From Eledone cirrhosa (taxonomy: Eukaryota), in NCBI GenBank assembly GCA_964016885.1, contig OZ024742.1, positions 10,044,001 through 10,108,000 on the forward strand: 64,000 nt of DNA, in the 5' to 3' direction. A model generated the notes under the pieces. It saw nothing but the letters and a program-made list of their open reading frames with translations. It was not told the DNA's origin and did not search any database. Shown here piece after piece: positions 1,032 through 64,000 of this stretch (the first letter of the stretch is position 1; each line of letters begins with the position of its first letter). A program made the translations under genes and the position numbers.

Positions 1032-1623
1032 TAGATAAATTCCTTTATTAGCCACAAGGGCACAACAGAAGGGGACAAATACAAATTGGGAGTTTACATA
1101 CAATTATATGAAAATAAAACTATTAATAAAATAACAAATAACAATTGACATCCCCAATAGGGGAGGCGTTACACAGGGGTTGTACACACCACGAAAAAAT
1201 GTACAACCCGCATCTCCAGGAGTACCAAGAGTGAGTACTCCCTTCCTCTCTTCCTCTTTTTCCTCAACCTACAGGATTATATAGAGAGAAGGCCCAACCA
1301 CTCGAAACATCTTTGCCACATTCACCCACCTTTTATAAAACTTGCCTCTCTCTCCATCCTGATTCTTCTTCGAAAATGATATTTGAAAAAACGAATCAGT
1401 TGCTCGCCGGAGAGAAATGTGTCTGACCTCAGCCCTTTTAACCTCGTCCACCATATAACCTCTTTCACCATAGCCATAACACAGAGGAAAACCGCCTCTC
1501 CCTCGTTTTTGAAGGAGTGTGGCGGTTTGATCATGACAATGGACTCGGTGGTCAACTGGATTGGTCACACCAGCGACAACAGTCGTTCTACATAGCCCCA
1601 CAGGTCGGAAACGCCCGGGCAGT
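1032..1623 (-). mobile_element. Tx1/L1-clade LINE, 5'-truncated 3' fragment (copy T1)
   Basis: ORFs 1322-1555 and 1269-1601 match the ORF2 C-terminus of the other copies (EVIWWTRLKGL...GPSLYIIL). The 3' UTR ends in AATAAA (tttatt on +). The 5' end abuts a (GATA)n tract. Confidence 0.9.
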
Positions 1624-1866
1624 TAGATAGATAGATAGATAAGTTTCTATTTATTTGCCACGAGAGCACAAAAGAAGGGGACAAATACAAGGGGGGAGTT
1701 TCCATAAAGGAACGAGTAAAAAACAAATAACAAATATAAAATTAACAATACAGTCCTCAATAGGGAGGAGGCGTTTGGGGGGATACACACCCACCCGAAA
1801 AAGTGTGCAACCCTTTTCCTTAGGAGCACAGAGAGGAGGTGCTCCTTTGCACTTCCACCTTTCCAC

Positions 1867-4800
1867 CTACAGGTTGATATAGAGAGAAGGCCCATTCACA
1901 CGGGTCATTCTCGCTACTTTCACCCACCTTTCATAAAACTTGCTGGGGTAGAGCACCTCTCTCTCCATTCTGATCCTTCTCTTAAAATGGTATTTAAAGA
2001 AAAGGACCAGTTGTTGGCCGGAGAGAAAGGTGTCCGACCTCAGCCCTTTCAAACGTGTCCACCATACCTCCTCTTTCACCATGGCTACTACACAGAGGAA
2101 GACCGCCTCTCCTTCATGTTTGAAGGGGGGAGGCGGCTTCATCGTTACAATGGTCAACCGGATTGGTCCCACCCGTTACAGCAGTCGTTCGACATAGCCC
2201 CACAGATCGGCAACGCCCGAGCTGTGTACCAATGCGTGTGCAACGGTTTCCTCGCACGGTTTCTGTAGAGTGTTTCTAGAACGGGCAGTGCCCCTCGGTG
2301 GCAGTGCCAGGCCAGGGACTTCTGGAAGTTGTCCATAGGTCCCGGGCCAAATGTCCTCCCGAATAGGCTGGCCAGTTCGTCTTCCTCCATGCCTAGGGCT
2401 TGTCCGAGGGCGTCGTCGGACCTACTAACCATCAGTCCTCTATAGAATGACGAGGTGGAGTCTCCACCGATAATCGGGTCCGCCTGCCGGAGAGCCGTGA
2501 GCGCCTGGGCACACTCGGTGTGCCAGGCGCCCAGTTTTCTCGGTCTTTGCTTGACCCAGGACTGCAGCTCGGTGAGCGAGATGAGTCTCGGAAAGGCTCG
2601 CCTCACAAACGGGGCCCACAACGGTTGACCGGTGAGGAATACCTGGAGGTGCCGTAGCCTTAATGCGTGTTTACGCATCAGCAACCACGGCATCCCCAAC
2701 CCTCCTTTCGAAGGGTGTTGACAGCAGATGGATCTCCTCACCAAAGAAAGCCCGCTTCTTCCAAAGGAATTAGAAGAGTGCGCGCTCCATTTTGGTGAGC
2801 GTTTCTCTTGGGCAAGGCACGACGGTCATAGATGACGGACGATATATAAGCGTTCGCCACCTCCGCCCGACCTTTCAGGGATAGTTTGCACTCAACCTAC
2901 TTCTGCGTCAGCGCAAACACCCTGTTCGATACCTCACCCCAGTTCTTCTCCACCTGGAGGTCTGGTCCGAACCAGACCCCGAGTAACTTCACCGGGCCCT
3001 CCGTCTAACGTCCGATGACGCCGTTGGAGGCCATCGGTTTGACCCTCCACTCGCCGAGTTGCAAACTGACTGACTTGTCCCGGTTCAGCTTAGCCCCTGT
3101 AAACTTTTCGTATTCCTCCAGTAAGGCACCGATCACTCCGATTTCCAAGGCGGTTGACACGTCATCGGCGTAGGCCGACACCACTTTCCGCAATCTCGGT
3201 TCCAAAGGGATGCTCTGTAACAACTCCAACTTCCGCAGCAGTGGCTCTAGGGCCAATACATATAGAAGGGGGGGGGGGGGGGGGGGAGAGGGCATCCCTG
3301 TCGGATGGACCGCGTGATTTCGAACGGCTCCGAAAGGTAGCCGTTCACCTTGACCCTAGAGCAGATGCGTCTATTGTGCATGTCAGTGATCCATCCCTGA
3401 AAACGGGTCAGAAACCTGCCGCCACTAGCACCGCATCCAGGTAACGATGGTCGACCCTATCGAACACCTTAGATTGATCCAAGTTGATCAGGGACTACGC
3501 CTTGGACTACGCCCTTGGTCACAGAACAGGGAATTCTCCCGCTCTGTTGCCAGTTGCAGTAGACCGCTTCGAGGAGATCGAAGAACAAGTCCGGCATATT
3601 TAAATACAGTTCGTATGGAAGACCATCGATGCCCGGAGATTTGCTTCTGCCGCATTGGCTCAGTACGTCCCCTATTTCAGCAGCTGAGATCGGCCTCTCG
3701 CAGGACTTCGCCTCCTCGTCCGAAAGACGCGGCAGGCCGTTGAGGTATGGACCGAGGTCCACATCCCTGTCCGGTCCCTCGTCCCTTCCGAACAATCGGG
3801 CAAAGTGCCTTTGAAAGGCCTCGCACATCTGCTTAGGTTCAAGGATCACCCGTCCATCCTGGTCTCGCAAAGACTGGATAGTGGATCTAGTCCCACTTTT
3901 GGCTTCTGTCACGCGGGCCCAGCTAACAGCTTTGGTCCCCTCGTTTCCCAGAGCACATATTTTGCTTCCGACAACGCAGCCTTCGTGTTTCGCGTCGAAG
4001 AACTGGCCCCAGGCCGTTCTCGACGCTAGCACTCTGGCTACGTCGCCGCTTCTAATTGCCTCTTCTACACTATCTACCAACTCCCTTTCCTTCCTATTTC
4101 TATCTGAGGCTAACTCCTTACTAACTCCTATTGAAGCTACTCTAATCTCTCTTTTGAGAGAGCCCCACCACCTGCTGTTGACGATGGCGCCCATCAACCG
4201 CTCCTTAACTAATGTACTAATCCGGTTCTTGTAAGCTTTACTTGCCGGTAAGGACAAGTTGAGCTTCCAGTAACCGGGTCCCTGTCTATGCGTTCTACCA
4301 AGGTTGACCATGGAGGTCACTAACTTGTGGTCTAAATAGCCAACCATGAGCATTTTTGGACAACTTAAAAAGTCCCTATCCTTATTTCTAACTAAGAACC
4401 TATCTAGGTACGATCTAGATTGACCGCTATGATTTATCCAAGTCCAGGTTGGCACAGTCGGAAAATCTAGTCGATATCTATCGGCCAGGTCGAATCGGCC
4501 GATTAACCCATTGTGGCTGTACAACATCCTCTATCAGGACAAGCCCATACATAGTCCCAACGTGCATCTAGGATACCATTCCAGTCCCCCACTAAAAGCA
4601 AGGAGCAGGACGTCCCTAGAAAAGTCTCCAGACGATGGAAGAAGTCCGGCCGCGTTGACCCAAAATGGCCGTAGACGGCGACCAACCTAAAAGCTCCGCC
4701 TTCACCGCTGCCAATGTTCAGAACCACTAGTCGACCCTCCGGGTCCAAGTGTACCGTCTGTGTAACGAAACCCAGATGTTTTTTCCGCAGAACGACAACC

Positions 4801-5007
4801 CCACCCCCAATCACCGGGCTGACAGAGAGAAGCGTGCATCTCAAAGTCATCAAAGGTGGGGGCCAGCTGTCGCACGCTCCTGATCCGGGCCTCGCAAATA
4901 ACCATCACATTTATACATCGTGACCTGAGGTCATTTAGAAGCATTGCTTGCTTCCAAAGTGAGCCCAGGCCACGCGCATTTAGACAACCTATTCTCAACA
5001 CAGCCAT
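1867..5007 (-). pseudogene. LINE ORF2 (APE endonuclease plus reverse transcriptase), frameshifted with internal deletions
   Basis: MAVLRIGCLNARGL, ICE, VGDWN, SYLDRF and DHK (APE). GYWKLN, KSPGIDGLPYE, FDRVDH, AYADD and GGLG (RT). Deletions near 3490 (RT motifs 1-2) and 2260 (C-terminal CxxC). Confidence 0.9.
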
Positions 5008-5239
5008 GTAAAGAGAAAAGGCACCTACCTCTCTGCATCCCGGGGACCAGGCCGCACAATTTCCATGGGGTGGGGGATGGGTTGTTGGGTGGGGTGGTGG
5101 TTTGTGGAAGTGTAGGGGCATCAGTGTGTGGTGGGGTTGGTGTGTTTGGAGTTGTGTGGGTGTCTGGGGGCGGGGAAATTTTTCAGGAGGACACGGTTAA
5201 TGGGTCTGACGCAGGGGAGCCCCCTCGTCCTCTTTAAAA

Positions 5240-6914
5240 GTGTCTGTTAACGATTTGTAAATGTCCATTGGGGCTTTTATCATTTTTAGATGGGGAAGCC
5301 CCGTTGCTTGTGCGAAATTCGAACCTTCGGTTTTTATTAAGTTATTGTTATAAATAACGTTATAACAGTTTTTTTATTTATTGTACTTAGGTAGGTATAT
5401 GCATATTTTTCTTTTTGCGTGATGTTTTTTGTTTGCTGTTGTTGTGTGTGTTTTTTGTGTTCATGTCTGTGTTATGGCTTGGGGAGGGCTTGTTTCTATT
5501 TGTGTTCCTGTGGTGTGTTTTCTTTTGTTTCTTTTAACTTTATAAAAGTCCCCCCCCCCCACGTCAGACAACGAAAGAGGGTCGTCTTCCGTATTCGAGG
5601 GGAGGGGTTCATTTTCGGCTCGTGTTTGTGGTGTGGGTGTTATTCTATTTGTTTTCTGTGTGGGGTGGATGGGTGGGATTGTTTTCAGTTGTGTTTTAAC
5701 TTGTGGTGTTAGTTGTTTTTGTGGGGGGGGGGGTTGTAGTTGTTGGTGTGGGCAAAATCGGTGTTTTTTTGTTTGCTTGGGAACAGGCAGCCCTCAGGTG
5801 ACCTCTGCCACCACAGAGGTAACAAGTGGGTCGTCTACCCTCCACTGTGATGTGTAAGTAGGCAAGCCCATCCAGCAATATGCGGTCGGGGATCCTAGCA
5901 ATTCGTTCTGGCTGCATTTGCACCAGAACTTGCAGGCTAGTTCCACCGAACACGTTGCTGGAAGACTTACCTACCGAAATTACTGCATCCTCTTTCAAGT
6001 CGAGGAGGCCACACATTACCGCCCAAAAATCAATATCTGGATCGATAGTGTGTTTGGTCAATCTTTGTGTTTTTCTTCCCAAATACGTTGGGAAGAAGGT
6101 AAATAAGGGAGACACAATTGGGGTCAGGGAATATTTTTAGGCCGTCAATTTATCTTTCATTCGGATGGATAGACTACCGTAGAGTCTATCCTTCCGAATG
6201 AATACAATGTTTTTCAGATGATCTTTTAACGCCAGTTCAATCTGTCTGTGTGAGTTTTACTGGCTTACGGGTTTTGTTTGATAGTGTCCCATAAATAATA
6301 GTTTTTAAGCTATTTTTATTTTTTTAGCTCTGGGGCAGAATTTAAAGAAAATAGACCATTCTCCTCCAAAGTTATATACTTCCGTGCATTTTCCATTTGC
6401 TGGGCCATGTTCGAAATGTCAATAGGTTCGTACACGATAGTTTTTTTTATGCTTTGCGCGAACGTCATTTTGTTCGCCCCCTCTCTGTTTACATTTGTCG
6501 AAATGTGGTGGTTTTCTTGTTTTTGTTGTTACAATTTTCATTTTTTGTTGTGTTTGTGTTATTTATGTTGTTGTATGCGTTCACATTTTTTTCCCCGTTG
6601 GGGTTAGACTCCATTTTTTCAAAATGTTCACTTATATTTTCCTTATCCGAGAGACTTGTAGTCACAGCTACTACTTCTCTTTCAGCTTTGCTGGTGGGCG
6701 TGGCACCGTGAAAAGTCGAAACGGCATCCATTAATGTTGGCAATTTCTCCGATTCAATTTCTTCCATATTTTTTTCATTAGGGTTAGGCTCCATTTTTTC
6801 AATGTTTCTAATAATCATTATTCTTTCAGTAGGGAGGCTTGTTGCCTCAGCTACCCGCTCTCCTTCAGTTTGTTTAGTGGGCGTGTCATCGTTACCTGTG
6901 GTAATGGCTTCCAT
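5240..6914 (-). pseudogene. LINE ORF1 (gag-like, CCHC zinc knuckle), disrupted
   Basis: CYLCGGRGHLRAAC (CX2CX4HX4C) in ORF 5696-6115. It lies upstream of ORF2 on the same strand. ATG at 6914 (MEAITT). The 3' boundary is approximate. Confidence 0.75.
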
Positions 6915-7120
6915 TACAACTAGCGTAGAGACAATCACAAGATTTTTAGGATGAAAAATTTCACCCCAAAAGGGTTGAAATAAATTAACCCTAATGTTCG
7001 AAGACCCAGGCAAGGGGGTTAATTAACACAATAACGCAAGAATACAGACAAACACTTACTGTTAACACGTAATATATCCAATAATCGAGGGGCCGATGTG
7101 AAGGACGTCTATACCATCCA

Positions 7121-7361
7121 GAGATAGATAGATAGATTTCTTTATTTGCCACAGAGACGTACAAAAATGGGACATTGCAAGACGTGACGGCGGGGGTTTA
7201 CATAAGAATCATATAACTTTAACATTAATAAATAACAATAAACTATATATAATAAAATAACAATTGAAATCCCCAGTAGGGGGGAACGTTACTGCAGGGT
7301 TGTTTTACACCCCGTGGATAGGACAACCCTCAACACCAGGAACACGTTTGTAGGTGTTCCT
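7121..7361 (-). mobile_element. Tx1 3' UTR-only fragment (copy T3)
   Basis: (GATA)n followed by tttctttatttgccaca. Closely similar to the 3' UTR at 55101-55330. Followed again by gatagatag. Confidence 0.85.
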
Positions 7362-7860
7362 ATAGATAGATAGAGGGAGAGAGAGAGAAAGAAGTGAGAG
7401 AAGGGTAGTGAAAGAAAGGGGGAGATAAAGAAAAAGAGGATGGAGTACGGGGATTGAGAGAGAAATGTAGTGAGGGAGCGAGAGTGGGTGGTTGGAGGTG
7501 AGAGTTATGGTGGACAAAATTGGTAGCGGAAAAGAGAATGAGAAATAGAGAGCGAGGCAGGGGGAGAGAGAGGGAGGGAGAGAGAGAGAACGAGCTTGAG
7601 AGAGAAAGGAGGAGAAGTAGAAAGAGAGAACGGGCTTGAGAGAGAAAGGGGGTGGTGAGAGAGAGAGAGAGAAGTAGATCAAGAGAAAGGTGAGAGAGAG
7701 GGAGAGAAGTAGAAAGAGAGAGAGAACGGGCTTGAGAGAGAAAGGAGGTGGTGAGAGAGGTGAGAGAGAGGGGGAGAAGTAGAGAGAGAGAGAGAGAACG
7801 GGCTTGAGAGAGAAAGGAGGGGGTGAGAGAGGTGAGAGAGAGGAGGGTAGAAAAGGAGAG
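7362..7860. repeat. GA-rich low-complexity region with about four degenerate units (gagagaacgggcttgagagagaaagg)
   Basis: The motif recurs near 7585, 7625, 7720 and 7795. Confidence 0.75.
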
Positions 7861-24691: not shown

Positions 24692-24829
24692 TTATGAAAG
24701 TGAAGTAAAAAGAGCTGTCAAAAAAATACAAAATAAAATAAAAAGAATTATAAAAATCCTAAAATTGGAATCAAGAATATATAAAGATTGAAGTGTGGAA
24801 ATATGGAAAGAGAGAGGGTTGGAGATAGA

Positions 24830-26370: not shown

Positions 26371-26756
26371 GGGAGGTGATAGATAGAGAGAGAGCGAGAG
26401 AGAGAGAAAGATAGAGAGAAAGGTATAGAGATAGTTAGAAAGATTGAGAGGGAGAGAGAGAGAGAGAGAGGGAGAGGGAGAAAGGTATATAGATAGATAT
26501 AGAGATATAGAGAGAGTGAGAGAGAGAGAGGGGGAGAAAGGTATAGATATAGATAGATAGATAGAGAGAGAGAGTGAGAGGGAGAAAGGTATAGATATAG
26601 ATAGAGAGAGAGAGCGAGAGAGAGAGGGGGGCAGAGAGAGATGCTGAACATCGTCTATAAATTATTCATATATAATAAAGATAGATGGGTGGATTAAAGA
26701 ATATCTGTATGTAGCTATGTATCTATACTTGCATGTATGTATATATATAGATAGAT

Positions 26757-27698: not shown

Positions 27699-28405
27699 AT
27701 GTGAAGTGGTAGCCTGTGAAGTGGTAGCATGTGAAGTGGTAACATGTGAAGTGGTAAAATGTGAAGTGGTAACATGTGGAGTGGTAACATGTGAAGTGGT
27801 AGCATGTGAAGTGGTAGCATGTGAAGTGGTAACATGTGAAGTGGTAACACGTGGAGTGGTAACATGTGAAGTGGTAGCATGTGAAGTGGTAGCATGTGAA
27901 GTGCTAACATGTGAAGTGGTAACATGTGGAATGGTAACATGTGGAGTGGTAACATGTGGAGTGTTAACATGTGAAGTGGTAACACGTGAAGTGGTAACAT
28001 GTGAAGTGGTAACATGTGGAGTGGTAACATGTGGAGTGGTAACATGTGAAGTGGTAACATGTGAAGTGGTAACATGTGGAGTGGTAACATGTGGATTGGT
28101 AACATGTGGAGTGGTAACATGTGAAGTGGTAACACGTGGAGTGGTAACATGTGAAGTGGTGACATATGAAGTGGTAACACGTGGAGTGGTAACATGTGAA
28201 GTGGTGACATGTGAAGTGGTAACACGTGGAGTGTTAACATGTGAAGTGGTAACATGTGAAGTGGTAACATGTGAAATGGCAACATGTGAAGTGGTAACAT
28301 GTGAAGTGGTAACATGTGAAATGGCAACATGTGAAGTGGTAACATGTGAAGTGGTAACATGTGAAATGGCAACATGTGAAGTGGTAACATGTGAAGTGGT
28401 AACAT
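27699..28405. repeat. 15-bp minisatellite (atgtgaagtggtaac), about 47 copies
   Basis: Exact 15-bp period. It gives spurious VVTCE/MLPLH ORFs. Confidence 0.95.
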
Positions 28406-39664: not shown

Positions 39665-42600
39665 TGCTATTCCAGTCATGTTTTCTATTTAATTTTGGTT
39701 GGAGTTCATTTATGTTTATTGCCTCTGTGATTTGTCTAAACATTGCATCTTTTCTGTGTGTAAATTCTATTTTTATTTCTATGTTCTCTAATTTGCCCTT
39801 ATGTTCTATTTTAGCATGTTAGTGGAGTATTAATGATTCTTTTTTATCTTGAAGTTCTCGCCATTGTTCATTTAACCGTTCTCCTATACTACCAGCTGTC
39901 TAACCTATGTACACTATATTCTTATCTTTACATTGTCCTTCAGTACATCTTATGCTATATACTACATTTCTAGTTTTACAGTTAATATGGGGGTTAGTTT
40001 ACAGATTATGCATTTCTTATCTATACAGGGATGTCTTTGAAAAGGCTATGTCTTGCTAATAAGTGTTTTTATGGAGGTACCTGGTCTTTCTATTATCTTA
40101 ATATTAAGTTTATGCTTATCTAGGGCCCTTCTAAATTTGTAAGCTAATTCACCTCTAGGGGTTATATTGATGAACATTGCACTCTGGTATTTATTGCTAT
40201 CATACCATGAGTTTATTCTATTAACCTTATTCCTAGTTCTTTCTATTCTATTCCAAAAGGTGCTCCTATACAAGGGGCAGGTCCATTTGTATTATTATTT
40301 ACCATGTTTCCCCATTTGGTTCTGGCTCCTCTATATACTCTAATTTTATCTCTCTGATTGTAACCAGAGAACTGCATACGGTGGATGAAGTGTTGTATGT
40401 GTCTCTCTAGTTCTTTTGGGTTGCACATGCGGGACACGTTTCTTATCACCCGTACCAAATCCGCAATCAGTACGTTTATTTTGGTATGGTCCGAAACAGC
40501 TGAGTTTCGGTGGATCAGATATTTGGAAGTCATGGGTTTGGCATAATGGGAATGGAGGATTTGTTTTTTGTTATTAATGGTTTCTAACCAGAGCTCTGTG
40601 TCTACTACAGGTAATCGATGGTTGGAGTGTTTGCTTGGGTAGTCTATAGTAACTCTAATACTCTGGTGGATGGAGTTAGCTATTTGCTGAATGCTTTCCA
40701 TGGTGTTTTTCTCTAATTCCTGACTGTTCTCTAGTGGGGGTGTTTTTACTACGATGTTTATATCATAAACGTAGCGGGAGTACATTATCAGGGTTAAGAG
40801 GTTGCTGTATTCTAATTGTTCTTTAAGTTTAACACCAATGGCTTCTTTAAGTTTAACACCAATGGCTGCTCCCTCCTCTTGGGCATATGTTTTTCCATTA
40901 AATTTGAATATATGTTCCTTAAGGGTAAATTTTATACTGGCCCCCACCGCATATGCAGTCATTTTCTTTAGTTCATCGTGGTTTTCGTGGGTCCGTATGA
41001 CTCTGGTCCACCCGTTCCATCCTTCTGTGTGGGTTTTCTTGGCCATTGAAGCAATGGTAGGTGGTCTGCCTCTTGCTGGTCTTGTAGGGCACAGGTTGCT
41101 AAGGTCACATGTATCTAGATAATCATTACTATAGGTAAGTTTAAGTAGGAGTCCCAGCTCACTGGTATCAATCCCACAGAATTCAACATTGCTCTCACTG
41201 ATCATTTCTACGCATTTCTCCACAGCAAAATCCACGTCAATGGATGGATATAGGTACACAACATCCATACTTCCTATTATACCGTTTGTTAGGTCCCTAG
41301 ATCGGTTACTTTCGCTGATTCTGCTGAGGAGGTCCTCCGTGCTCTCACATATATCTGGGGACATTTCAATGATGGGGCGTATGATCAGGGAGAGGAAGTA
41401 GGAAAGTCTGTAGTTACTAGCAATTTTACTCCACAGACTGGCCGTGTTGGTGGTCCTGTGAAAGGGTCACTGCTCGTTTTATCGTCTTTTCGAAGCCCAT
41501 ACAACGCTGGCACATCATTGTTACAGGCCTGGAAGTTGTTGGCAGTCCTTTTATTGGGCTGCATTATGTTTGTCCACATCATCATATGGGCATTGAGGAT
41601 TTTCTCCCTATCCTTATGCTCTTGTAGTGTTACTTCTCTTGTGTTAGTGATGTGGGGTTGCATTGCCTGGATGTAGTTTGTCAGACTGTCAACCGACATT
41701 CTGCCAGACTTGTCTGTTGGAAAGCATGCAATCTCTCCATTACGCCAGCGCTGCATGAGCTTACGCAAGCCATTTGCAGATTTTTCTCCCAGTTGCTGGG
41801 CTTCCATTCTATTTTTCTTCTTGCTATACTGTTCTATACTATTTCTAAGCTTAGATCTAGATATACTAAATTGTGCTTCTGTTTGTTCATCGACCTGCGA
41901 CGGCAATTGCGTGCGTTTGTTAAAAGATAAAGTCATGACGTGGACTCGTCGTAGGTCGAAGGACATATCGGAAGGATTATAAAATGTAGAGTTCCAGGCT
42001 GCTGCTTTATGTGTACTATTGCTATTGTTATTGTTAGTTGTGTTGTCTCTATTTCTATTTCCACCAACAGCCTCATGGTTGTTTCTATGTCTCTCATTAT
42101 TACTCCTGTCTCTTTCCTCTGGCTCATTGTTATTATCTTATCTGTTTTGTGTGTCTGTGTGTTCGTTCTGGTTATTTTCTCTGTCAGTATCGATAGTCTC
42201 CCTTCTCCTTTCAATCCCATTACATTCCCTTACTTCTGTGTTACTGCCATTACCTGTTTTCTGTGTCTGTGTGTTTGTTAAGATTGTGGTGGTGGTGAGA
42301 GGCATAGAATGTGTGTGTGTGTTGTTGTTGTTGTTGATATGTGCTGTTGTTGATGTGTTTTGTTGTTGTTGTTGTCTCCGTGTATGTTATTATTGTTGTG
42401 TGTGTTGTTGTTATAGTTGTTTGTGTCTGTGTGTCTGTTGTTGTTGTTTCTGAGTATGTTATTATTGTTGATGTGTGTGTTGTTGTTATTGTTGTTTGTG
42501 TCTGTGTGACTGTTGTTGTTGGGATGTGTGTGTGCGTATGTTGTTACTTTTGTTTTTGTTTTTGAGGCTCCAACGTAATTTTGTAAATTATTTTTCTATT

Positions 42601-50866: not shown

Positions 50867-50989
50867 ATACCTTCTCGATTGATGTCCAGACCTCTACGTC
50901 TCTGTCCACCTACTGTCCACAGTCCAATACCTTCTCGGTTGATGTCCAGACCTCTACGTCTCTGTCCACCTACTGTCCACAGTCCAATA
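50867..50989. repeat. 60-bp tandem duplication (2 copies)
   Basis: ataccttctcg(a/g)ttgatgtccagacctctacgtctctgtccacctactgtccacagtcca occurs twice. Confidence 0.9.
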
Positions 50990-51184: not shown

Positions 51185-51229
<45 letters not shown>

Positions 51230-53445
51230 TTCTTTATTTACCATAAAGGCATAAAAAGAAGGGACAAATACAAAGGGGGAGTTTACATATAATCGAGTAA
51301 AAAGGGTGTAACATGAAAATAATCGAAAATAACCTCAAAAGAGAGGGGACGTGATGGGGGTTGCACACACCCCCGAAAAAGTGTGCAATCCTTTGCCCGG
51401 GGAGCACATGGAGAAGGTGCTCCCCTCTCCTTTACTTCTTTACCTACAGGATGGTATACAGAGAAGGCCCATTTACACGAGCCATTCTCGCCACTATCAC
51501 CCACCTTTCATAAAACTGCCTGTGGCCAAGCACCTCTCTCTCCATTCTTATCCTTCTTCCGAAGTGATATCGGAAGAAGTAGACCAGACTATGGCCAGAG
51601 AGGAAGTTGCCTGACCTCAGACCTTTCAATCGTGTCCACCAAACAACCTCTTTCAACATGGCTATTACGCACAGAAAAACCGCCTTTGCTTCCTTTGTGA
51701 AGAGGGGAGGCGGTTTGATTGTCATCACGGACTCGGCGGTCAATTTAATCGGCGCCACCCGCGAGAGCAGTTGTTCGGCGTAGCCCCACAGATCAGCCAC
51801 GCCCGGACATTGCACCAATGCGTGCGCTACAGTTTCTTCGTGACGCACGCATCTAGGGCAAATCTTTTTTGAGGGATCCCTGCCCGGGCGCCCGTGTCTG
51901 TAGAGCCTCTCTCGAACGGGTAGAGCCCCTCGGTAGCACTGCCAGGCCAGTGACTTCTGGAAGTTGTCCATTGGTCCTGGGCCGAAAGTCCTACCGAACA
52001 GGCTGGCCAGTTCGTCTTCTTCCATGTCCAGCGACTCTCCAAGGGTGTCATCGCCCCTGCTAGCCACCAGCCCTCTATAGAATGATGAGGTGGATTCTCC
52101 ACCGATGGCCCGGCCCGCTTGCCAGAGAGCCCTGAGCGCCTGAGCACACTCAGTGTGCCAGTCTCCCAGTTTTCCGGATCTTTGCTTGACCCAGGACTGT
52201 AGCTCGGTGAGTGAGACGAGTCTCGGAAAGGCTCGTTTCACGAACGGAGCCCACACCGGTTGACCAGTGAGGAATACCTGTAGGTGCCGTAGCCTTAATG
52301 CGTGCCTACGCATCATCAACCACGGCATCCCCAGCCCTCCTTTCGAAGGTTGTTGGCAGCAGATGGATCTTCTCACCATAGGAGGACGCTTCTTCCAAAG
52401 AAATTGGAAGAGCATGCGTTCCATGGTGGTGAGTGTTTCCTTAGGGCAAGGCACGACAGTCAGGCGGTAGTAAGTGACGGACGCTATGTAAATGTTCGCC
52501 ACCTCCGCCCGGCCTTTTAGGGACAGCTTACACTTGGCCCATTTCTGGGTTAGTGCAAACACCTTGTTCGTAACCTCGTTCCAGTTCTTTTCCACCTGGA
52601 GGTCCGGTCCAAACCAGACCCCAAGCAACTTTACCGGGCCCTCCGTCCAGTGTCCGACGACACCGTCAGGAGGCATCGGTTTGCCTCTCCACGTTCCGAG
52701 TTGCAGCCCGATGGATTTTTCCCGGTTCAGTTTCGCTCCTGACAACCCTTCGTACTCCTCCAGTAAGGTACCGATCGCCTCGATCTCCGAGTCGGTTGAT
52801 ACCATTACTGTTACGTCATCGGCGTAGGCCGACACCGCTTTGCTCAATCCTGGTTCCAGGGGGATACCCTGCAACAACTCCAACTTCCTCAGTAAAGGCT
52901 CGAGAGTCAATACGTACAGAAGGGAGGAGAGAGGGCACCCCTGTCGAATGGATCGTGTGATTTCGAACGGCTTCGAAAGGTAGCCGTTCACCTTGATCCT
53001 AGAACAGATGTGGTTGCTATGTAGGGCAGTGATCCAGCCTCTGAAAACAGGACCGAACCCAGCCGCCGCTAGCACCGCATCCAGGTAACCATGGTCGACC
53101 CTATCGAAGGCCTTAGACTGATCCAAGTTGATCAGGGCCCCACCGAAGCCGGGTTTGTTGCCAACCCTCTCTATGATGTATCGCATGAGGTGGAGGTTAT
53201 CGTGAATGGACCTGGATGGGATAGCACATGTCTGCGCATCTCCCACCAGGCTACCCACGACAAGCGCCAACCTCTTTGCTAACACCTTGGCCAAAATCTT
53301 TAACTCTGTGTTTAGCAGGGTTATGGGCCGAAAATTATTTATACTATCCCCCTTGTTCTCGTCCTTCCTCACCAGCGTGACTACGCCCTTGGCTACAGAA
53401 CAAGGAATTCTCCCGTTCTGCTGCCAATTGCAGTAGACCGCTTCA
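51185..53445 (-). mobile_element. Tx1 LINE, 5'-truncated (copy T4); RT and C-terminal zinc finger are uninterrupted
   Basis: Open frame 51444-53445: NFRPITLLN, LDQSKAFDRVDH, IRQGCPLS, YADD, CPRC..ETVAHALVQC. (GATA)n on both sides. Confidence 0.95.
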
Positions 53446-53446
53446 T

Positions 53447-53499
<53 letters not shown>

Positions 53500-53504
53500 G
53501 AGAG

Positions 53505-53544
<40 letters not shown>

Positions 53545-55100
53545 TTCTTTATTTGCCACAAGGGCGCACGAGAAAAGTGGACAATACAAAGACACATGCC
53601 AGGTATTTTACATACAGTCGTGTAAAAATATTATTAAAACAAACAAATTTAACAATCGTAACGCCTCTCCCCGACAGGGGAGAGGCGTTACAAATGGGTT
53701 GTTTAATACTCCGCCGATAGAACAACCCTCAACTTCAGGAGCGTGTTGTGCAAGTGCTCTTTCTTCCTTTTGCTCTCTTCTTCAACCTACAGGTTTATAT
53801 ACAGAGAAGGCCCGATTACTCGGGCCATTTTTGCTGCATTCATCCACCTTTCAATTAATTTACTGGGGTGCAGTGCCTCTCTCTCCACTCTGATTCTCCT
53901 TCTAAAGTGATACCTAAAGAAGGGAATGAGTTGTCCGGAAAGAAAGGTATCTGTCCTCAGTCATCTCAATCTCGTCCACCATATAACCTCTTTCACCATA
54001 GCCACTATACAGAGGAAAACCACCTCTCTTTCGTTTTTGAAAGAGGTTGGCGGTTTGATCCTTACTATGGACTCGGCAGTCAACTGGATCTGTCCCATAC
54101 GCGACAGCAGTTGTTCTGCGTAGTTCCACAGGTGGTTACGCCCGGGCAGTGTACAATTGCGTGCAGGACTGTTTCAATGTCCTGCGCGCATCTTGGACAC
54201 GTCCTTTTGGAAGGATTCCTTCCGGGGCGTCCGTGCCTGTAGATCTTGTCTCGAACTGGTAGAGCTCCTCGGTAGCACTGACAGGCCAGGGACATCTGGA
54301 AGTTGTCCATAGGTCCCGGGCGGAAAGTCCTACCAAACAGACTGGTGAACTCGTCGTCTTCGACGCCCAGAGTCTCTCCGAGCACGTTGTCGCCCATGTG
54401 ACGTATTAACCCTCTATAGAATGTCGAAGTGGAGTCTCCATTGATTGCTGTACCCGCTTGACAGAGGACTGTGAGCGCCTGAGCGCATTCACTGTGCCAG
54501 GCTTTTTCGGTCTGCGCTTGACCCAGGACTGCAGCTCCGTCAGCGAGACAAGTTGCTGGAAGGCCTGTCTCACAAACGGTGCCCACACCGGTTGGTCGGT
54601 GAGGAATACCTGGAGATGCCGTAGCCTCAGCGCATGTTTTCGCCTCATCAGCCACGGCATTCCCAGCCCTCCGTTGGAAGGGTGCTGACTGCAGACGGAT
54701 CTCCTCACCAGTGGAGCCTGCTTCTTCCAAAGGAACTGGAAGAGCATGCGCTCAATCTTGGTGAGGTGTTCACGGGGACAAGGCACGATGGTCAAGCGGT
54801 AGTAGATGACGGACGCTATGAAAGTGTTCGCCACCTCGTTTCAAGGATAGATCGTACTCTTCCCACTTCTGGGTGAGCGCAAATATCTTGGCCGTGACCT
54901 CGTTCCAGTTTTTCTCCACCTGGAGGTCCGGACCGAACCAGACCCCGAGCAATTTCACCGGTCCTTCCGTCCAGCGTCTGACGACACTGTCGGACGGCAT
55001 CGGTTTGCCTCTCCACGTTCCGAGTTGCAAACCGACAGACTTGTCCTGGTTCAGTTTTGCTCCTGTAAACCTTTCGTATTCCTGCAGTAAGTTGCCGAAC
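53446..55100 (-). mobile_element. Tx1 LINE, 5'-truncated, distinct subfamily (copy T5)
   Basis: Frameshifted RT thumb and C-terminus, a distinct 3' UTR, and a long (GATA)n tail at 53446-53543. Confidence 0.92.
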
Positions 55101-55497
55101 GATATCTTTATTTGCCACAAGGGCGTACAAGAAATGGGACATTACAAGACGTGACGGTCGGGTTTTTAATAAAAGTCGTATGAACTTTATCATTAATAAA
55201 TAACAATAAACTATATATTAAAAAATTAACAATCGAAATCCCAAATAGGGCGGAACGTTACTGCAGGGTTGTTTTACACCCCGTGGATAGAACAATCTCA
55301 ACACCAGGAACACGTTTTGTAGGTGTTCTCGTCTTCCCTCTTTTTGTCTTTCTCAACCTACAGGTTTATATACAGACAAGGCCATTCACTCGGGACATTT
55401 TCGCCATTTTCACCAGCCTTTTGGCGAATTTACTGGGGTGTAACACCACTCTCACCATTCTCACCTTCCTCTGAAGTGGTACTTAAAGAAGGGGATG
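55101..55497 (-). mobile_element. Tx1 3' fragment (copy T6, same subfamily as T3)
   Basis: gatatctttatttgccac 3' end, then the 3' UTR and last ORF2 codons. The 5' end abuts (GATA)n. Confidence 0.88.
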
Positions 55498-58400
55498 TAG
55501 ATAGATAGATAGATAGATATATAGATAGATAGATAGATAGATAGATATGTTTTTTATTAGCCACAGGGGCACAAAAGAAGGGGAAAAGTACAAAGGGGGA
55601 AGTTTACATACAATACAAACGTGTAAAATGTTATAACAAATGCAATTTAAAAAGTTAGTCGATTTTCCCCAATAGGGGGAGACAGTTCATATGGGTAACA
55701 CATACCCCCGAAAAAATGTGCAACCCTCAACTCCAGGAGTACGAAGAGTTTGTACTCCTTTCCTCTCCTCCTCCTTTTCCTCAACCTACAGGCTGATATA
55801 GAGAGAAGGCCCATTCACTCGGGCCATTCTCGCCACTTCCACCCATCCTTCATAAAACTTGCTGGGGTACAGCACCTCTCTCTCCATCCTGATTCTTCTT
55901 CCAAAGTGGTATTTGAAAAGAAGAACCAGTTGTTGGCCGGAGAGAAAGGTGACTGACCTCAGCCCTTTCAACCTTGTCCACCATACAACCTCTTTCGCCA
56001 TAGCTATCACACAAAGGAAAACCGCCTCTCCTTCGTTTTTGAAGGAGGGTGGCGGTTTGATCATGACAATGGACTCGGTGGTCAACCGGATTGGTTCCAC
56101 CCGCGACAATAGTCGTTCTACATAGCCCCACAGGTCAGTGACGTCCGGGCAGTGTATGAATGCGTGCGCGGCGGTTTCTTCGTTACGCACGCACCTCGGA
56201 CAGATCTTTTTTGCAGGGTCCCTGCCCGGGCGCCCATGTCTGTAGAGCTTGTCTCGAACTGGTAGAGCTCCTCGGTATCACTGCCAGGCCAGGGACTTTT
56301 GGAAGTTGTCCATCGGTCCCGGGCGGAAGGTCCTACCGAACAGACTGGCCAGTTCATCTTCCTCTACGCCTAGAGTTTCACCGAGCGCGTCGTCGCACTT
56401 GCTGCGGAACAACCTTCTATAGAATGACGAAGTGGAGTCTCCACTGATCGCCGGGTCCGCCTGCCAGAGGGCTGTGAGCGCCTGAGCACATTCGATGTGC
56501 CAGTCGCCCATTTTCCTCGGTCTTTGCTTGACCCAGGACTGCAGCTCGGTGAGCGAGACGAGTCGTGGGAAGGCTCGCCTCACGAACGGGGCCCACACCA
56601 GTTGTCCGGTGAGGAATACGTAGAGATGCCGCAGCCTGAGCGCGTGTTTGCGCATCGTCAACTACGGCATCCCCAGCCCTCCGTTAGAAGGGTGTTGGCA
56701 GCAGATGGATCTTCTCACCAAAGGAGCCCGCCTCTTCCAAAGGAATTGGAAGAGCGCGCGCTCCATTTTGGCGAGCTTCTTGGCTGGAGAAGGCACGACG
56801 GTCAAGCGGTAGTAGATGGCGGACGCTATAAAAGTGTTCGCCACCTCCGCTCGACCTTTCAAGGATAGTTTGCACTCGGCTCACTTCTGGGTGAGTGCAC
56901 ACACCTTGGCCGACACCTCGTTCCAGTTCTTCTCCACCTGGAGGTCCGGACCAAACCAGACCCCGAGCAGCTTTACTGGTCCTTCCGTCCATCGCCCGAC
57001 GACGCCATTGGAAGGCATCGTTTTGCCTCTCCACGATCCGAGTTGCAAACCGATGAACTTGTCCCGGTTCAGCTTCGCTCCTGTGAACCTTTGCGAGGCG
57101 CTCGACACCATTACTGTCACGTCGTCGGCGTAGGCCGACGCCGCTTTCCATAGTCCCGGTTCCAGAGGGATGCCCTGAAATAGCTCCAACTTCCGCAGTA
57201 GTGGCTCGAGAGTCAATACGTACAGAAGGGAGGAGAGAGGGCATCCCTGTCGAATGGATCGCGTGATATGGAACGGCTCCGAGAGGTATACGTTCACCTT
57301 AACCCTTGAGCAGATCTTGATGTTACGCATTGCAGCAATTCAGCCCCTGAACACGGGTCCGAAACCTGCCGCCTCGAGCACCGCATCCAGGTAACGATGG
57401 TCAACCCTATCGAAAGCCTTAGACTGATTCAAGTTGATCAGGGCCCTACCGAAGCCGGGTTTACACCCTGCCCTCTCTATGATGTATCGCATGAGGTGGA
57501 GGTTGTTGTGTATGGACCTGGTCGGGATTGCGCATGTCTGCGCTTCTCCCACCAGGTTCTCGATGTAAGCGCCAGCCTCTTTGCCAACACCTTGGCCAAA
57601 ATCTGTAATTATGTGTTTAGCAGAGTTATGGGTCGGAAGTTACCTATGTCATCCCCCTTATTCTCGTCCTTCCTGACTAGTGTGACTACGCCCCCAGTCA
57701 CAAAACTGGGAATTCTCCCGTTCTGTTGCCAGTTGCAGTAGACCGCTTCCAGGAGACCGGAGAATAAGTCCGGCATTGCTACGTAAAATTCGTAGGGTAG
57801 ACTATCGAGACCTGGAGATTTGCGTTTGCCGCATTGGCTCAACGCGTCCCCTATCTCAGCGGTTGAAATCGGCTTTTCGCAGAACTTCGCCCCGCTGTCC
57901 GAGAGACGCGGTAGGCCGTCGAGGTATGGACCGAATTCCATAGCCCCTCCCGGCGCGCCACCCTGCCCGAACAGCTGAGCAATATGCCGCTGAAACCCGC
58001 ACACATCTTCTTCGGCTCACGTATCACCCGTCCGTTTTGGTCCTTCAAAGACCGAATCGTGGACTTGTTGCCACTTTTGCCTCCGTCTCTCGGGCCCAGC
58101 TAACAGCTTTGGCTCCTTCGTTTCCCAGAGCACGTATTTTGCTTCTGACAACGCAGCCCTCATGCTTTGCGTCGAAGAACTGGTCCAAGGCCGTTCTCGT
58201 TGCTAGCACGCTGGCTACGTTGCCACTTCTAATTGCCTCTTCTACTTCATCTACCAGTTCTTTCTCGGTTCTATTTCTATCTAACGCTAATTATTTACTA
58301 AAAACTAACGAGTCTAATCTAACTGCCCTCTTGAGAGAGTACCACCATCTATTGTTGACAATGGCCCCTGTCAAGTGCTGTTTAACTAAATTGCTAATCC

Positions 58401-59000
58401 GTCTACTGTAGGCTTTGCATGTCGGTAACGACAAGTTCAGCTTCCACTAGTCGGGTCCTTGTCTATGGGTTCTATGAAGGTTGAGCATGCAGGTCACTAG
58501 TTTGTGATCTGAATAGGCAACATGAACATTTGTGGACAGCTTAACATGTCCCTAGCCTTATTTCTAACTAGAACCCTATCTAGTTACGATCTAGATGTTC
58601 CGCTAAGATTAGTACACGTCCACAGTGGCACAGTCGGAAAATCTAGTCGATATCTATCGGCCAGGTCAAATCGGCCGATTAACTGTTTGAGGATGTTACA
58701 CCCCCCCCCCCTTTATCGGGACATTCTCCCACAGTCCCAACGTGAATCTAGGATTCCATTCCAGTCCCCCATTAAAATCAAGGAGCGGGGCGTTCCCAGA
58801 AAAGTCTCTAGACGTTTGAAGAAGTCTGGCCGCGGTGTCCCGAATGGGGCATATGCGGCCACCAGCCTGAGAGATCTATCTTCACTACCGTCAATGTCTA
58901 GGACCACCAGTCGACCCTCCGGGTCCAGATGTACCGTCTGTGTTACGAGGCCCAGGTGTTTCCGCAGCAAAACGGCAACCCCGGTTGACAGAGATATGCG
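55498..59000 (-). mobile_element. Tx1 LINE truncated within the APE domain, heavily mutated (copy T7)
   Basis: Fragmented ORF2 (55786-58990) collinear with T8. Confidence 0.93.
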
Positions 59001-59012
59001 TAGATAGATAGA

Positions 59013-59046
<34 letters not shown>

Positions 59047-62000
59047 TTCTTTATTAGCCACAGGGGCACAAAAGAAGGGGACAAATACAAAGGGGGAAGT
59101 TTACATACAATAAAAACGTGTAAAATGTTATCACAGATGGAATTTAAAAGTTAGTCGATTTTCCCCAATAGAGGGAGACAGTTTATATGGGTAACACATA
59201 CCCCCGAAAAAAAATGTGCAACCCTCATCTCCAGGAGTACGAAGAGCTTGTACTCCCTTCCTCTCCTCCTCCTTTTCCTCAATCTACAGGCTGATATAGA
59301 GAGAAGGCCCATTCACTCGGGCCATTCTCGCCACTTTCACCCACCTTTCATAAAACTTGCTGGGGTACAGCACCTCTCTCTCCATCCTGATTCTTCTTCC
59401 AAAGTGGTATTTGAAAAAAAGAATCAGTTGTTGGCCGGAGAGAAAGGTGTCTGACCTCAGCCCTTTCAACCTTGTCCACCATACAACCTCTTTCGCCATA
59501 GCTATCACACAAAGGAAAACCGCCTCTCCTTCGTTTTTGAAGGAGGGTGGCGGTTTGATCATGACAATGGACTCGGTGGTCAACTGGATTGGTCCCACCC
59601 GCGACAATAGTCGTTCTACATATCCCCACAGGTCAGTGACGCCCGGGCAGTGTATGAATGCGTGCGCGACGGTTTCTTCGTCTCGCACGCACCTCGGACA
59701 GATCTTTTTTGCAGGGTCCCTGCCCGGGCGCCCATGTCTGTAGAGCTTGTCTCGAACTGGTAGAGCTCCTCGGTAGCACTGCCAGGCCAGGGACTGTTGG
59801 AAGTTGTCCATCGGTCCCGGGCGGAAGGTCCTACCGAACAGACTGGCCAGTTCATCTTCCTCCACGCCTAGAGTTTCACCGAGCGCGTCGTCGCACTTGC
59901 TGCGGACCAACCCTCTATAGAATGACGAAGTGGAGTCTCCACTGATCGCCGGGTCCGCCTGTCAGAGGGCTGTGAGCGCCTGAGCACATTCGATGTGCCA
60001 GTCGCCCATTTTCCTCGGTCTCTGCTTGACCCAGGACTGCAGCTCGGTCAGTGAGACGAGTCGTGGGAAGGCTCGCCTCACGAACGGGGCCCACACCGGT
60101 TGTCCGGTGAGGAATACGTAGAGATGCCGCAGCCTGAGCGCGTGTTTGCGCATCGTCAACCACGGCATCCCCAGCCCTCCGTTAGAAGGGTGTTGGCAGC
60201 AGATGGATCTTCTTACCAAAGGAGCCCGCCTCTTCCAAAGGAATCGGAAGAGGGCGCGCTCCATTTTGGCGAGCGTTTTGGCTGGACAAGGCACGACGGT
60301 CAAGCGGTAGTAGATGGCGGACGCTATAAAAGTGTTCGCCACCTCCGCTCGACCTTTCAAGGATAGTTTGCACTCGGCCCACTTCTGGGTGAGTGCAAAC
60401 ACCTTGGCCGTCACTTCGTTCCAGTTCTTCTCCACCTGGAGGTCCGGACCAAACCAGACCCCGAGCAGCTTTACCGGTCCTTCCGTCCAGCGTCCGACGA
60501 CGCCATCGGAAGGCATCGGTCTGCCTCTCCACGATCCGAGTTGCAAACCGATGGACTTGTCCCGGTTCAGCTTCGCTCCTGTGAGACTTTCGTATTCCTT
60601 TAGTAAGGTGCCGACTTTCTCGATTTGCGAGGCGCTCGACACCATTACTGTCACGTCGTCGGCGTAGGCCGACGCCGCTTTCCGCAGTCCCGGTTCCAGA
60701 GGGATGCCCTGCAATAGCTCCAGCTTCCGCAGTAGTGGCTCGAGAGTCAGTACGTACAGAAGGGAGGAGAGAGGGCATCCCTGTCGAATGGATCGCGTAA
60801 TATGGAACGGCTCCGAGAGGTAACCGTTCACCTTGACCCTTGAGCAGATGTTGCTGTTGTGCATTGCAGCAATCCAGCCCCTGAACACGGGTCCGAAGCC
60901 TGCCGCCTCGAGCACCGCATCCAGGTAACGATGGTCAACCCTATCGAAAGCCTTAGACTGATCCAAGTTGATCAGGGCCCCACCGAAGCCGGGTTTACAC
61001 CCAACCCTCTCTATGATGTATCGCATGAGGTGGAGGTTGTCGTGTATGGACCTGGTCGGGATCGCGCATGTCTGCGCTTCTCCCACCAGGTTCTCGACGA
61101 CAAGCGCCAGCCTCTTTGCCAACACCTTGGCCAAAATCTGTAACTCTGTGTTTAGCAGAGTTATGGGCCGGAAGTTGCCTATGTCATCCCCCTTATTCTC
61201 GTCCTTCCTGATTAGTGTGACCACGCCCCCGGTTACAGAACTGGGAATTCTCCCGTTCTGTTGCCAGTTGCAGTAGACCGCTTCCAGGAGACCGGAGAAT
61301 AAGTCCGGCATTGCTGCGTAAAATTCGTAGGGTAGACCGTCGAGACCTGGAGATTTGCGTTTGCCGCATTGGCTCAGCGCGTCCCCTATCTCAGTGGCTG
61401 AAATCGGCTTTTCGCAGAACTTCGCCTCGCTGTCCGAGAGTCGCGGTAGGCCGTCGAGGTATGGACCGAAATCCATAGCCTCTCCCGGCGCGCCGCTCCC
61501 CCCGAACAGCCGAGCAAAGTGCCGCTGAAAAGCCGCACACATCTGCTTCGGCTCACGTATCACGCGTCCGTTTTGGTCCTTCAAAGACCGAATCGTGGAC
61601 TTGTTGCCACTTTTTGCCTCCGTCACTCGGGCCCAGCTAACAGCTTTGGCTCCCTCGTTTCCCAGAGCACGTATTTTGCTTCTGACAACGCAGCCCTCGT
61701 GCTTTGCGTCGAAGAACTGGTCCAAGGCCGTTCTCGTTGCTAGCACGCTGGCTACGTTGCCACTTCTAATAGCCTCTTCTACTTTATCTACCAGTTCCTT
61801 CTCGGTTCTATTTCTATCTAACGCTAATTCTTTACTAAAAACTATCGAGTCTAATCTAACTGCCCTCTTGAGAGAGTACCACCATCTGTTGTTGACAATG
61901 GCCCCTGTCAAGTGCTGTTTAACTAAAGTGCTAATCCGTCTACTGTAGGCTTTGCTTGTCGGTAACGACAAGTTCAGCTTCCAGTAGCCGGGTCCTTGTC

Positions 62001-62534
62001 TATGGGTTCTATCAAGGTTGGCCATGCAGGTCACTAGTTTGTGATCTGAATAGGCAACCATGAACATTTGTGGACAGCTTAACATGTCCCTATCCTTATT
62101 TCTAACTAGAACCCTATCTAGGTACGATCTAGATGTTCCGCTCGATTAGTCCACGTCCACAGTGGCGCAGTCGGAAAATCTAGTCGATATCTATCGGCCA
62201 GGTCAAATCGGTCGATTAACTGTTTGAGGCTGTTACACCCCCCTTTATCGGGACATGCTCCCACATAGTCCCAACGTGCATCTAGGATTCCATTCCAGTC
62301 CCCCACTAAAAGCAAGGAGCGGGACGTTCCCAGAAAAGTCTCTAGACGTTTGAAGAAGTCTGGCCGCGGTGTCCCGGATGGGGCATATGCGGCCACCAGC
62401 CTGAACGCTCCACCTTCACTACCGTCAACGTCTAGGACCACCAGTCGACCCTCCGGGTCCAGATGTACCGTCTGTGTTACGAGGCCCAGGTGTTTCCGCA
62501 GCAAAACGGCAACCCCGGTTGACAGAGATATGCG
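59001..62534 (-). mobile_element. Tx1 LINE truncated within the APE domain, nearly intact ORF2 (copy T8)
   Basis: 128-aa, 707-aa and 208-aa ORFs are separated by one 1-bp deletion (about 62140) and one TGG>TGA stop (59962). Confidence 0.95.
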
Positions 62535-62546
62535 TAGATAGATAGA

Positions 62547-62584
<38 letters not shown>

Positions 62585-64000
62585 TTCTTTATTAGCCACA
62601 GGGGCACAAAAGAAGGGGACAAATACAAAGGGGGAAGTTTACATACAATAAAAACGTGTAAAATGTTATCACAGATGGAATTTAAAAGTTAGTCGATTTT
62701 CCCCAATAGAGGGAGACAGTTTATATGGGTAACACATACCCCCGAAAAAAAATGTGCAACCCTCATCTCCAGGAGTACGAAGAGCTTGTACTCCCTTCCT
62801 CTCCTCCTCCTTTTCCTCAATCTACAGGCTGATATAGAGAGAAGGCCCATTCACTCGGGCCATTCTCGCCACTTTCACCCACCTTTCATAAAACTTGCTG
62901 GGGTACAGCACCTCTCTCTCCATCCTGATTCTTCTTCCAAAGTGGTATTTGAAAAAAAGAATCAGTTGTTGGCCGGAGAGAAAGGTGTCTGACCTCAGCC
63001 CTTTCAACCTTGTCCACCATACAACCTCTTTCGCCATAGCTATCACACAAAGGAAAACCGCCTCTCCTTCGTTTTTGAAGGAGGGTGGCGGTTTGATCAT
63101 GACAATGGACTCGGTGGTCAACTGGATTGGTCCCACCCGCGAAATAGTCGTTCTACATATCCCCACAGGTCAGTGACGCCCGGGCAGTGTATGAATGCGT
63201 GCGCGACGGTTTCTTCGTCTCGCACGCACCTCGGACAGATCTTTTTTGCAGGGTCCCTGCCCGGGCGCCCATGTCTGTAGAGCTTGTCTCGAACTGGTAG
63301 AGCTCCTCGGTAGCACTGCCAGGCCAGGGACTTTTGGAAGTTGTCCATCGGTCCCGGGCGGAAGGTCCTACCGAACAGACTGGCCAGTTCATCTTCCTCC
63401 ACGCCTAGAGTTTCACCGAGCGCGTCGTCGCACTTGCTGCGGACCAACCCTCTATAGAATGACGAAGTGGAGTCTCCACTGATCGCCGGGTCCGCCTGCC
63501 AGAGGGCTGTGAGCGCCTGAGCACATTCGATGTGCCAGTCGCCCATTTTCCTCGGTCTCTGCTTGACCCAGGACTGCAGCTCGGTCAGTGAGACGAGTCG
63601 TGGGAAGGCTCGCCTCACGAACGGGGCCCACACCGGTTGTCCGGTGAGGAATACGTAGAGATGCCGCAGCCTGAGCGCGTGTTTGCGCATCGTCAACCAC
63701 GGCATCCCCAGCCCTCCGTTAGAAGGGTGTTGGCAGCAGATGGATCTTCTTACCAAAGGAGCCCGCCTCTTCCAAAGGAATCGGAAGAGGGCGCGCTCCA
63801 TTTTGGCGAGCGTTTTGGCTGGACAAGGCACGACGGTCAAGCGGTAGTAGATGGCGGACGCTATAAAAGTGTTCGCCACCTCCGCTCGACCTTTCAAGGA
63901 TAGTTTGCACTCGGCCCACTTCTGGGTGAGTGCAAACACCTTGGCCGTCACTTCGTTCCAGTTCTTCTCCACCTGGAGGTCCGGACCAAACCAGACCCCG
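62535..64000 (-). mobile_element. Tx1 LINE nearly identical to T8, running off the window (copy T9)
   Basis: Offset about 3538 bp from T8. The 3' UTR appears identical. Confidence 0.95.

Follow-up and report, generated by a model that had tools for sequence, protein, structure and literature searches.

Microsatellites of the units (TC)n, (TTC)n, (TTCC)n and (TTTC)n are described targets of long interspersed nuclear elements (LINEs) of the Tx1 clade (PMC4494074, whose Figure 3 names more Tx1 targets than its text). Other Tx1 elements target U2 and transposons (jointly PMC4494074, PMC4640811, PMC3812793, PMC2718515, PMC8303610, PMC8967140, PMC3747384 and PMC13282606). Target choice is credited mainly to the endonuclease (PMC3812793, PMC4494074), and how elements target microsatellites is considered poorly understood (PMC3812793). 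In Octopus vulgaris, 13 recently active 'L1-Tx1' families with 421 near-full-length insertions have been reported (PMC13282606, Table 1). Here we analyze a 64,000-nucleotide (nt) stretch of the Eledone cirrhosa genome (contig OZ024742.1, positions 10,044,001 to 10,108,000), hereafter the window, which holds nine Tx1-type LINE copies, T1 to T9. These elements probably prefer (TATC)n/(GATA)n as a target. We consider it likely, from their junctions, that this Tx1-type lineage inserts into such tracts by target-primed reverse transcription, with each new copy ending up between two tracts that would be open to later insertions.

The nine copies occupy two blocks, T1-T3 (1044-7361) and T4-T9 (51233-64000), all on the minus strand, as a first-pass annotation of the letters alone had proposed. 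A blastn search of the nine copies against the 64-kb window (E<=1e-3) found no further piece outside both clusters. They represent one LINE lineage with an apurinic/apyrimidinic endonuclease (APE) and a reverse transcriptase (RT), arranged head to tail, and no unique DNA separates neighboring copies. The copies, with their open reading frames (ORFs) and untranslated regions (UTRs), and the tracts between them are as follows.

62588..64000, minus: T9, young; late RT region to 3' UTR; continues past the window end
62535..62587, minus: tract, T9 tail and T8 5' flank; (TATC)n with one interruption
59050..62534, minus: T8, partial APE, RT, zinc finger and 3' UTR; chimera in which 105 nt of the T7 5' end are joined to a T9-type body
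59001..59049, minus: tract between T8 and T7; (TATC)n, interrupted as in 62535-62587 and shorter by one unit
55553..59000, minus: T7, 5' truncation inside the APE; decayed, 9 stops
55499..55552, minus: tract, T7 tail and T6 5' flank; (TATC)n
55107..55498, minus: T6, 3' fragment of 392 nt; 3' UTR type shared with T3
55101..55106, minus: T6/T5 join, one TATC unit; the weakest junction, later deletion possible
53548..55100, minus: T5, 5'-truncated; 1 stop, 3 frameshifts
53447..53547, minus: tract 5' of T4, the T5 tail; (TATC)n of ~98 nt with a short (CT)n interruption
51233..53446, minus: T4, 5' truncation just before the RT; 666-codon frame, 0 stops, 0 frameshifts
51185..51232, minus: terminal tract of the second cluster; (TATC)11, then unique flank
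7362..7374, minus: host tract 5' of T3; (TATC)3 ending a CT-rich tract, the only 5' tract that is no tail
7141..7361, minus: T3, 3' UTR only
7122..7140, minus: tract, T3 tail and T2 5' flank; (TATC)4
1650..7121, minus: T2, near full length, decayed; 5' UTR, ORF1, broken APE, RT and 3' UTR
1624..1641, minus: tract, T2 tail and T1 5' flank; (TATC)4.5
1032..1623, minus: T1, 580-nt 3' fragment; 1.5 TATC units at its end, then unique flank

Both ends of the copies meet TATC repeats, in agreement with the first-pass annotation. At the 3' end, all nine carry AATAAA followed by 2-8 nt and then TATC-phase repeat. Poly(A) is absent from this interval in every copy, and the tails of T1 and T6 measure just 1-1.5 units. 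All eight visible 5' ends abut TATC, seven with at least three units and T5 with one, the 5' end of T9 lying beyond the window. Every junction ends in TATC phase, and the (TC)n or (TTC)n junctions of Kibi and Koshi elements occur at none. An Rfam scan of the window gave no match, so U2, 5S and tRNA genes, the targets of Keno, Mutsu (which is linked to 5S) and Dewa elements, do not lie at the junctions. Two counts had to be lowered. Junctions 59001 and 62535 both contact TATC but are a single event, and the eight visible 5' junctions represent seven independent ones. A count of eight independent junctions was rejected, as T8 arose by duplication. The seven truncation positions first proposed become six, as the 5' end of T2 is probably intact.

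All seven in-window events would fit a preference for TATC, and the Tx1 clade includes sequence-specific families. As background, 75 of 44,853 non-element positions (0.17%) lie 0-3 nt after at least three TATC units on the elements' strand, and none do on the other strand. All TATC tracts of at least 12 nt, within and outside the elements, are on the minus strand, and the elements are oriented alike.

Of the independent 5' tracts, seven in all, six double as the tail of an upstream copy, so only T3 (7362) shows a plain host tract. It starts right after host (CT)n-(TATC)3, with no element upstream, in what is one event; the original observation that a tract stands on both sides of T3, and is there not a tail, thus holds. 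The same tract bears on a reading in which the elements have a loose, Kibi-like taste for T/C-rich microsatellites and TATC is frequent only as the tail of earlier copies. That the T3 host tract is (CT)n passing into (TATC)3, that the T5 tail includes a (CT)n stretch and that the sister group targets (TC)n-type repeats would all suit this reading. However, no copy sits in any of the 37 AG/CT tracts found outside the elements, AGAT-type tracts number 10 (of 248 short microsatellite tracts in non-element DNA, over twelve listed unit classes), and TATC phase is found at every junction; we regard a loose preference as highly improbable.

The larger train did not grow by insertion alone but includes a tandem duplication. 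T8 is 99.8% identical to T9 over 1,414 nt and matches T7 exactly for 105 nt past the junction, then at ~95%; the tracts at 62535-62587 and 59001-59049 carry an identical interruption. T8 is a T7/T9 duplication chimera, not an independent insertion; it arose either when T7 and T9 crossed over unequally or as a duplication in the assembly. Neighbors differ in age and decay. Stops number 0 in 1,980 aligned nt of T4, 1 in 2,748 of T8, 9 in 2,847 of T7 and 5 in 2,448 of T2 (plus 6 frameshifts), while T9 has 0 stops and 1 frameshift over 1,197 aligned nt. Over 3,431 sites, T7 carries 90 derived changes and T8 40 (p=1.4e-5). The T9/T8 body is younger than T7, which is more decayed, and stands on the 5' side of T7, where a tract must therefore already have been in place.

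These data address a second alternative, that TATC is merely a template-encoded tail (microsatellite seeding) and that the trains come from template jumping in one insertion plus tandem duplication. Such an origin is compatible with the six 5' tracts that are also tails and with the T8 duplication, and LINE seeding of this very repeat unit is published for snake CR1-L3 (PMC8303610). Template jumps would give one age, yet decay differs strongly between neighbors, which speaks against one such event; six diverged subfamilies are involved, and the tract at T3 has no upstream element. We consider this origin quite unlikely.

Sequence reads from other samples extend the picture for cluster 1. Reads of four runs from three organisms were mapped to window positions 700-7480; against the unique flank 700-1061, run X4 (organism D) shows no substitution. 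Two new 5' break points joined to a GATA tract, at T2 position 1697 (X4) and ~4112 (X2), are among the 12 listed of 444 rows. Longer tracts follow T1-, T2- and T3-type 3' ends in these samples, the T3 type in all four runs and the T1 type in X9 with 240 reads and 10 starts. The X2 contig that covers the T2 5' region starts 7 nt inside the tract. Summed contig depth is ~70,000-420,000 over ORF2 and 1,500-4,000 over ORF1 (single listed X4 contigs, 6-13). Depth is no copy number, and its profile shows a high-copy, mostly truncated family. The first-pass annotation had proposed that GATA targeting builds self-growing LINE trains. The preference and stepwise growth are supported by the T3 host tract, the unequal decay and the two extra junctions, but an origin of all copies by insertion is contradicted by the T8 duplication.

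The encoded proteins conform to the Tx1 plan. Pfam matches in the element frames are PF00078, PF13966 and, just under the cut-off at 4.6e-5, PF03372. ORF2 of the copies comprises an N-terminal APE, the RT and a C-terminal zinc finger, which is a Tx1-clade feature, as is the ORF1 with a CCHC knuckle that lies upstream of ORF2 in T2. This ORF1 (5696-6136) is broken and matches PF00098 below the cut-off (E=0.0017). The 5' end of T2 is probably intact and not truncated, given the ~207 nt of 5' UTR that precede ORF1, the CCHC knuckle within it and the repeat-level read depth of the 5'-end bin 6829-7055 in runs X4 and X2. The T2 APE (~5005-4280) is broken, and its motifs align with those of protein P0006 and Xenopus Tx1L; its hairpin loop has 14 residues, compared with 16 in Tx1L and (TC)n loci, a difference that says nothing on target. 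The T2 RT has an internal deletion of ~240 nt near 3505 (3492-3518), with a 12-13 nt duplication at the break.

The 3' UTRs fall into six types, 48-72% identical to one another. T3 and T6, one in each cluster, have 3' UTRs that are 87-88% identical, and the earlier statement that at least five types exist, one of them in both clusters, is confirmed. We predict three hairpins in them.

51325..51430, minus: the three hairpins predicted in the 3' UTRs, shown for T4, also at 1140-1250; present in all 8 aligned UTRs

Over the eight UTRs the hairpins comprise 20 pairs, with 93.7% of 159 cells paired and 7 pairs changed on both sides. Their covariation is 0.386, compared with 0.226 +/- 0.024 in shuffles (0 of 500 reach the observed value) and a maximum of 0.236 for slid controls; folding of single UTR sequences gives z-scores of -0.6 to -5.2. 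These values are suggestive of a three-hairpin fold kept across six diverged 3' UTR types by compensatory changes, and only suggestive because few UTRs were aligned, these are related, and the same alignment yielded the structure. Stem-loops are a mark of LINEs that recognize their own 3' end (PMC3747384).

The closest named proteins come from Argonauta hians (63-67% identity), then Acanthosepion pharaonis (47-51%), from which we infer that the lineage is probably octopod. The best named and characterized relative is Xenopus Tx1L (YTX2_XENLA, P0241), with 30% identity across 94% of the query length; one query scored 269 bits to Tx1L and 158 to human L1 ORF2p. RT trees place the window copies together, as an octopod group within a long-stem lineage (support 100). 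This lineage is sister to a clade of Xenopus Tx1L and (TC)n loci, with a Shimodaira-Hasegawa-like approximate likelihood ratio test (SH-aLRT) value of 89 in a quick tree of 59 rows (2 of 61 were dropped for short overlap). The position recurs with 41 rows (18 more omitted), at SH-aLRT 81.8 and ultrafast bootstrap (UFBoot) 88; support labels on the re-rooted path of this tree are displayed one node too high, which was allowed for in reading them. The rows comprised no vertebrate L1. The RT tree thus gives moderate support to a Tx1-type assignment of the window LINEs.

The (TC)n loci come from a scan of metagenome contigs (26 of 64 parts), which yielded 80 loci, all distant (~27-46% identity). 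Targets read from the loci's own flanks are (TC)n in L004, L010 and L011, U2 in L001 and L003, and 5S in L006. L011 is built like the window copies, with (TC)n on both sides, AATAAA, a short spacer and no poly(A). The U2- and 5S-flanked loci branch elsewhere in the tree than the window lineage, which itself falls (support 100) outside the clade of L004, L010 and L011, loci that are Kibi-like by flank and not named Kibi. The window lineage is no Kibi/Koshi member but appears to work like one. Searches of viral contigs by 3' motif and by protein gave 0 matches, and prokaryote genomes gave 43 pattern matches and 0 relatives.

Further observations concern related loci and proteins. In metagenome contigs, Tx1-type elements lie beside U2 in a Keno-like manner (L001 701-817, L003 554-716), and poly(A) followed by 5S rRNA occurs in L006 (5892-6010). 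LINE contigs ending in (ATTG)n, (ATGT)n or (ACAT)n (L012 4174-4214, L041 1-76, L045 7050-7102) possibly reflect an association with other microsatellites, unless the contigs simply break there in assembly. A large group of intact ORF2 proteins (P0003-P0042) of ~1,150 aa, 40-46% identical and in clusters of up to 732 members, is sister to the octopod group.

Several observations weigh against insertion into (TATC)n/(GATA)n as we propose it. Just one 5' junction, that of T3, involves a plain host tract, and hardly any tract follows T6 or T1, the latter being the last copy of cluster 1 in the 3' direction. With T8 set aside, T7 and T9 alone differ by 26 to 13 derived changes (p=0.053), against outgroups ~20% diverged. 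Both extra junctions were seen from one side, and they may lie within other trains or have arisen by tandem duplication. An empty-site joint 7362->1032 is not among the 15 listed of 1,442 joints, and a GATA tract stands at 0 of the 24 listed (of 7,292) loose ends, which resemble diverged element sequence. Since these lists omit repeat positions, with 34 joints and 44 loose ends dropped there, the lack of GATA loose ends neither supports nor refutes targeting. A sense-strand TATC tract of at least three units occurs in 0 of the 80 metagenome loci, which offer no outside lineage with a TATC target. Finally, the RT trees do not nest this lineage within the (TC)n-flanked elements, so (TC)n specificity cannot simply count as inherited.

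How might insertion proceed? L1-type APEs prefer to nick at T/A. In the mechanism we propose, the element protein would nick a (GATA)n strand, probably at a T/A step. Tract starts at the 3' junctions are ATCT in five of nine copies, which would fit such a nick, and TATC in four, which leave the phase ambiguous. The nick could prime on the A-rich RNA end just past AATAAA or on read-through UAUC repeats, either of which would explain the missing poly(A) tail, and the RNA would likely be recognized through the conserved 3' UTR hairpins. Synthesis of cDNA would usually halt early and then join the left half of the tract. The outcome would be a pair of tracts, either of them open to a further hit by any subfamily. 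Trains could grow in this way in both directions over time, with unequal crossover between neighbors adding whole units.

That the endonuclease is the main cause of the preference is, in our judgment, only slightly favored. Primer-template pairing could set the target instead: the RNA would end in (UAUC)n, a relaxed APE would nick widely, and only nicks in (GATA)n would pair and prime. The lack of poly(A) in all nine copies, the long tracts behind all three 3' types checked in other samples, the mixed start phase and a targeting mechanism that the review PMC3812793 calls poorly understood are all congenial to pairing. We think it unlikely nonetheless, as T1 and T6 are nearly without a tract and the endonuclease is mainly credited with target choice (PMC3812793, PMC4494074).

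A broader proposal is tentative, and we hold it as possible rather than probable. The window copies may belong to a still-active, octopod-wide Tx1 lineage that gained (GATA)n specificity apart from the vertebrate (TC)n families. Its subfamilies, at least six, would differ in 3' UTR, keep one three-hairpin fold and share a self-renewing target, with GATA tracts acting as sinks in which multi-subfamily trains grow and from which new tracts are seeded. The 'L1-Tx1' families of O. vulgaris are probably the same elements, and since these were recently active, intact copies probably exist; the words 'target' and 'GATA' occur 0 times in PMC13282606. Among the literature matches listed, which included few subscription papers and did not extend to Repbase/Dfam, there is no GATA/TATC-targeting family of elements without long terminal repeats (non-LTR), and prior annotation of this target, for example in Repbase/Dfam, is quite possible. 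If the proposal is true, the endonuclease has a new simple-repeat specificity and offers a clean system to separate nuclease choice from primer pairing; a simple-repeat target makes this question directly testable for APE elements. With GATA targeting, the microsatellite units that the cited papers list for Tx1 elements would rise to five, and a mollusc would join the hosts, in a distant lineage. Such targeting bears on octopus repeat annotation, and GATA marker loci may be disrupted or multiplied by insertions.

The window holds other repeats. A decayed LINE of another kind with a weak RT match (E=0.004) lies at ~8035-10900 on the minus strand; judged by eye, it has a C-terminal Cys/His finger and a restriction-like endonuclease motif, and we take it to be CRE/Hero-like. 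Its 5' side passes into an (ACC)n-rich minisatellite (10906-11641). Two long minus-strand frames at 40243-42137 have no Pfam match and look like a Penelope-type RT fragment. A 31-bp unit is repeated 220 times at 14656-21476 and may resemble part of an octopus short interspersed nuclear element. Further minisatellites have units of 60 bp (23081-23986), 32-34 bp (24825-26376) and 15 bp (27699-28405). The flank beyond T4 contains a 60-bp direct duplication (50867-50989), and no partner repeat was found within the window for a piggyBac-like end after the T4 tract.

The arrangement in the window is not random. Microsatellite-targeting Tx1 families and tandem stacking are both already published, and the TATC unit is probably a new target of known behavior. 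Kibi, Koshi and crocodilian Tx1 group 2 (Tx1-1_Crp, Tx1-2_AMi and others) share with the window copies a Tx1-type APE-RT organization and a pyrimidine-rich sense-strand microsatellite (PMC4494074). The window copies differ in their TATC unit, their separate long-stem sister lineage and their mollusc rather than vertebrate host. Their RT is only 37-39% identical to that of the (TC)n-flanked loci, and ORF2 is ~1,150 aa in the lineage's intact relatives, compared with 1,290-1,330 aa in the Kibi/Koshi-type group. Xenopus Tx1L, unlike the window copies at a microsatellite, inserts into the Tx1D DNA transposon. Snake CR1-L3 has the window's repeat unit beside a LINE (ATAG, AATAG), but belongs to the CR1 clade and is described as microsatellite seeding, not targeting (PMC8303610). 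Waldo (ACAY)n, Mino (AC)n, Dong (TAA)n and Togen (TG)n are also microsatellite-targeting non-LTR elements, one with a tetranucleotide (PMC3812793, PMC4640811); they belong to other clades and target other units. The arrangement in trains most resembles the tandem R1 arrays of Drosophila 28S ribosomal DNA (rDNA), in which repeated insertion leaves head-to-tail copies with a regenerated target between them (PMC2718515). R1 elements form their own clade and use a 14-bp unique rDNA target, whereas in the window several subfamilies stand at a microsatellite.

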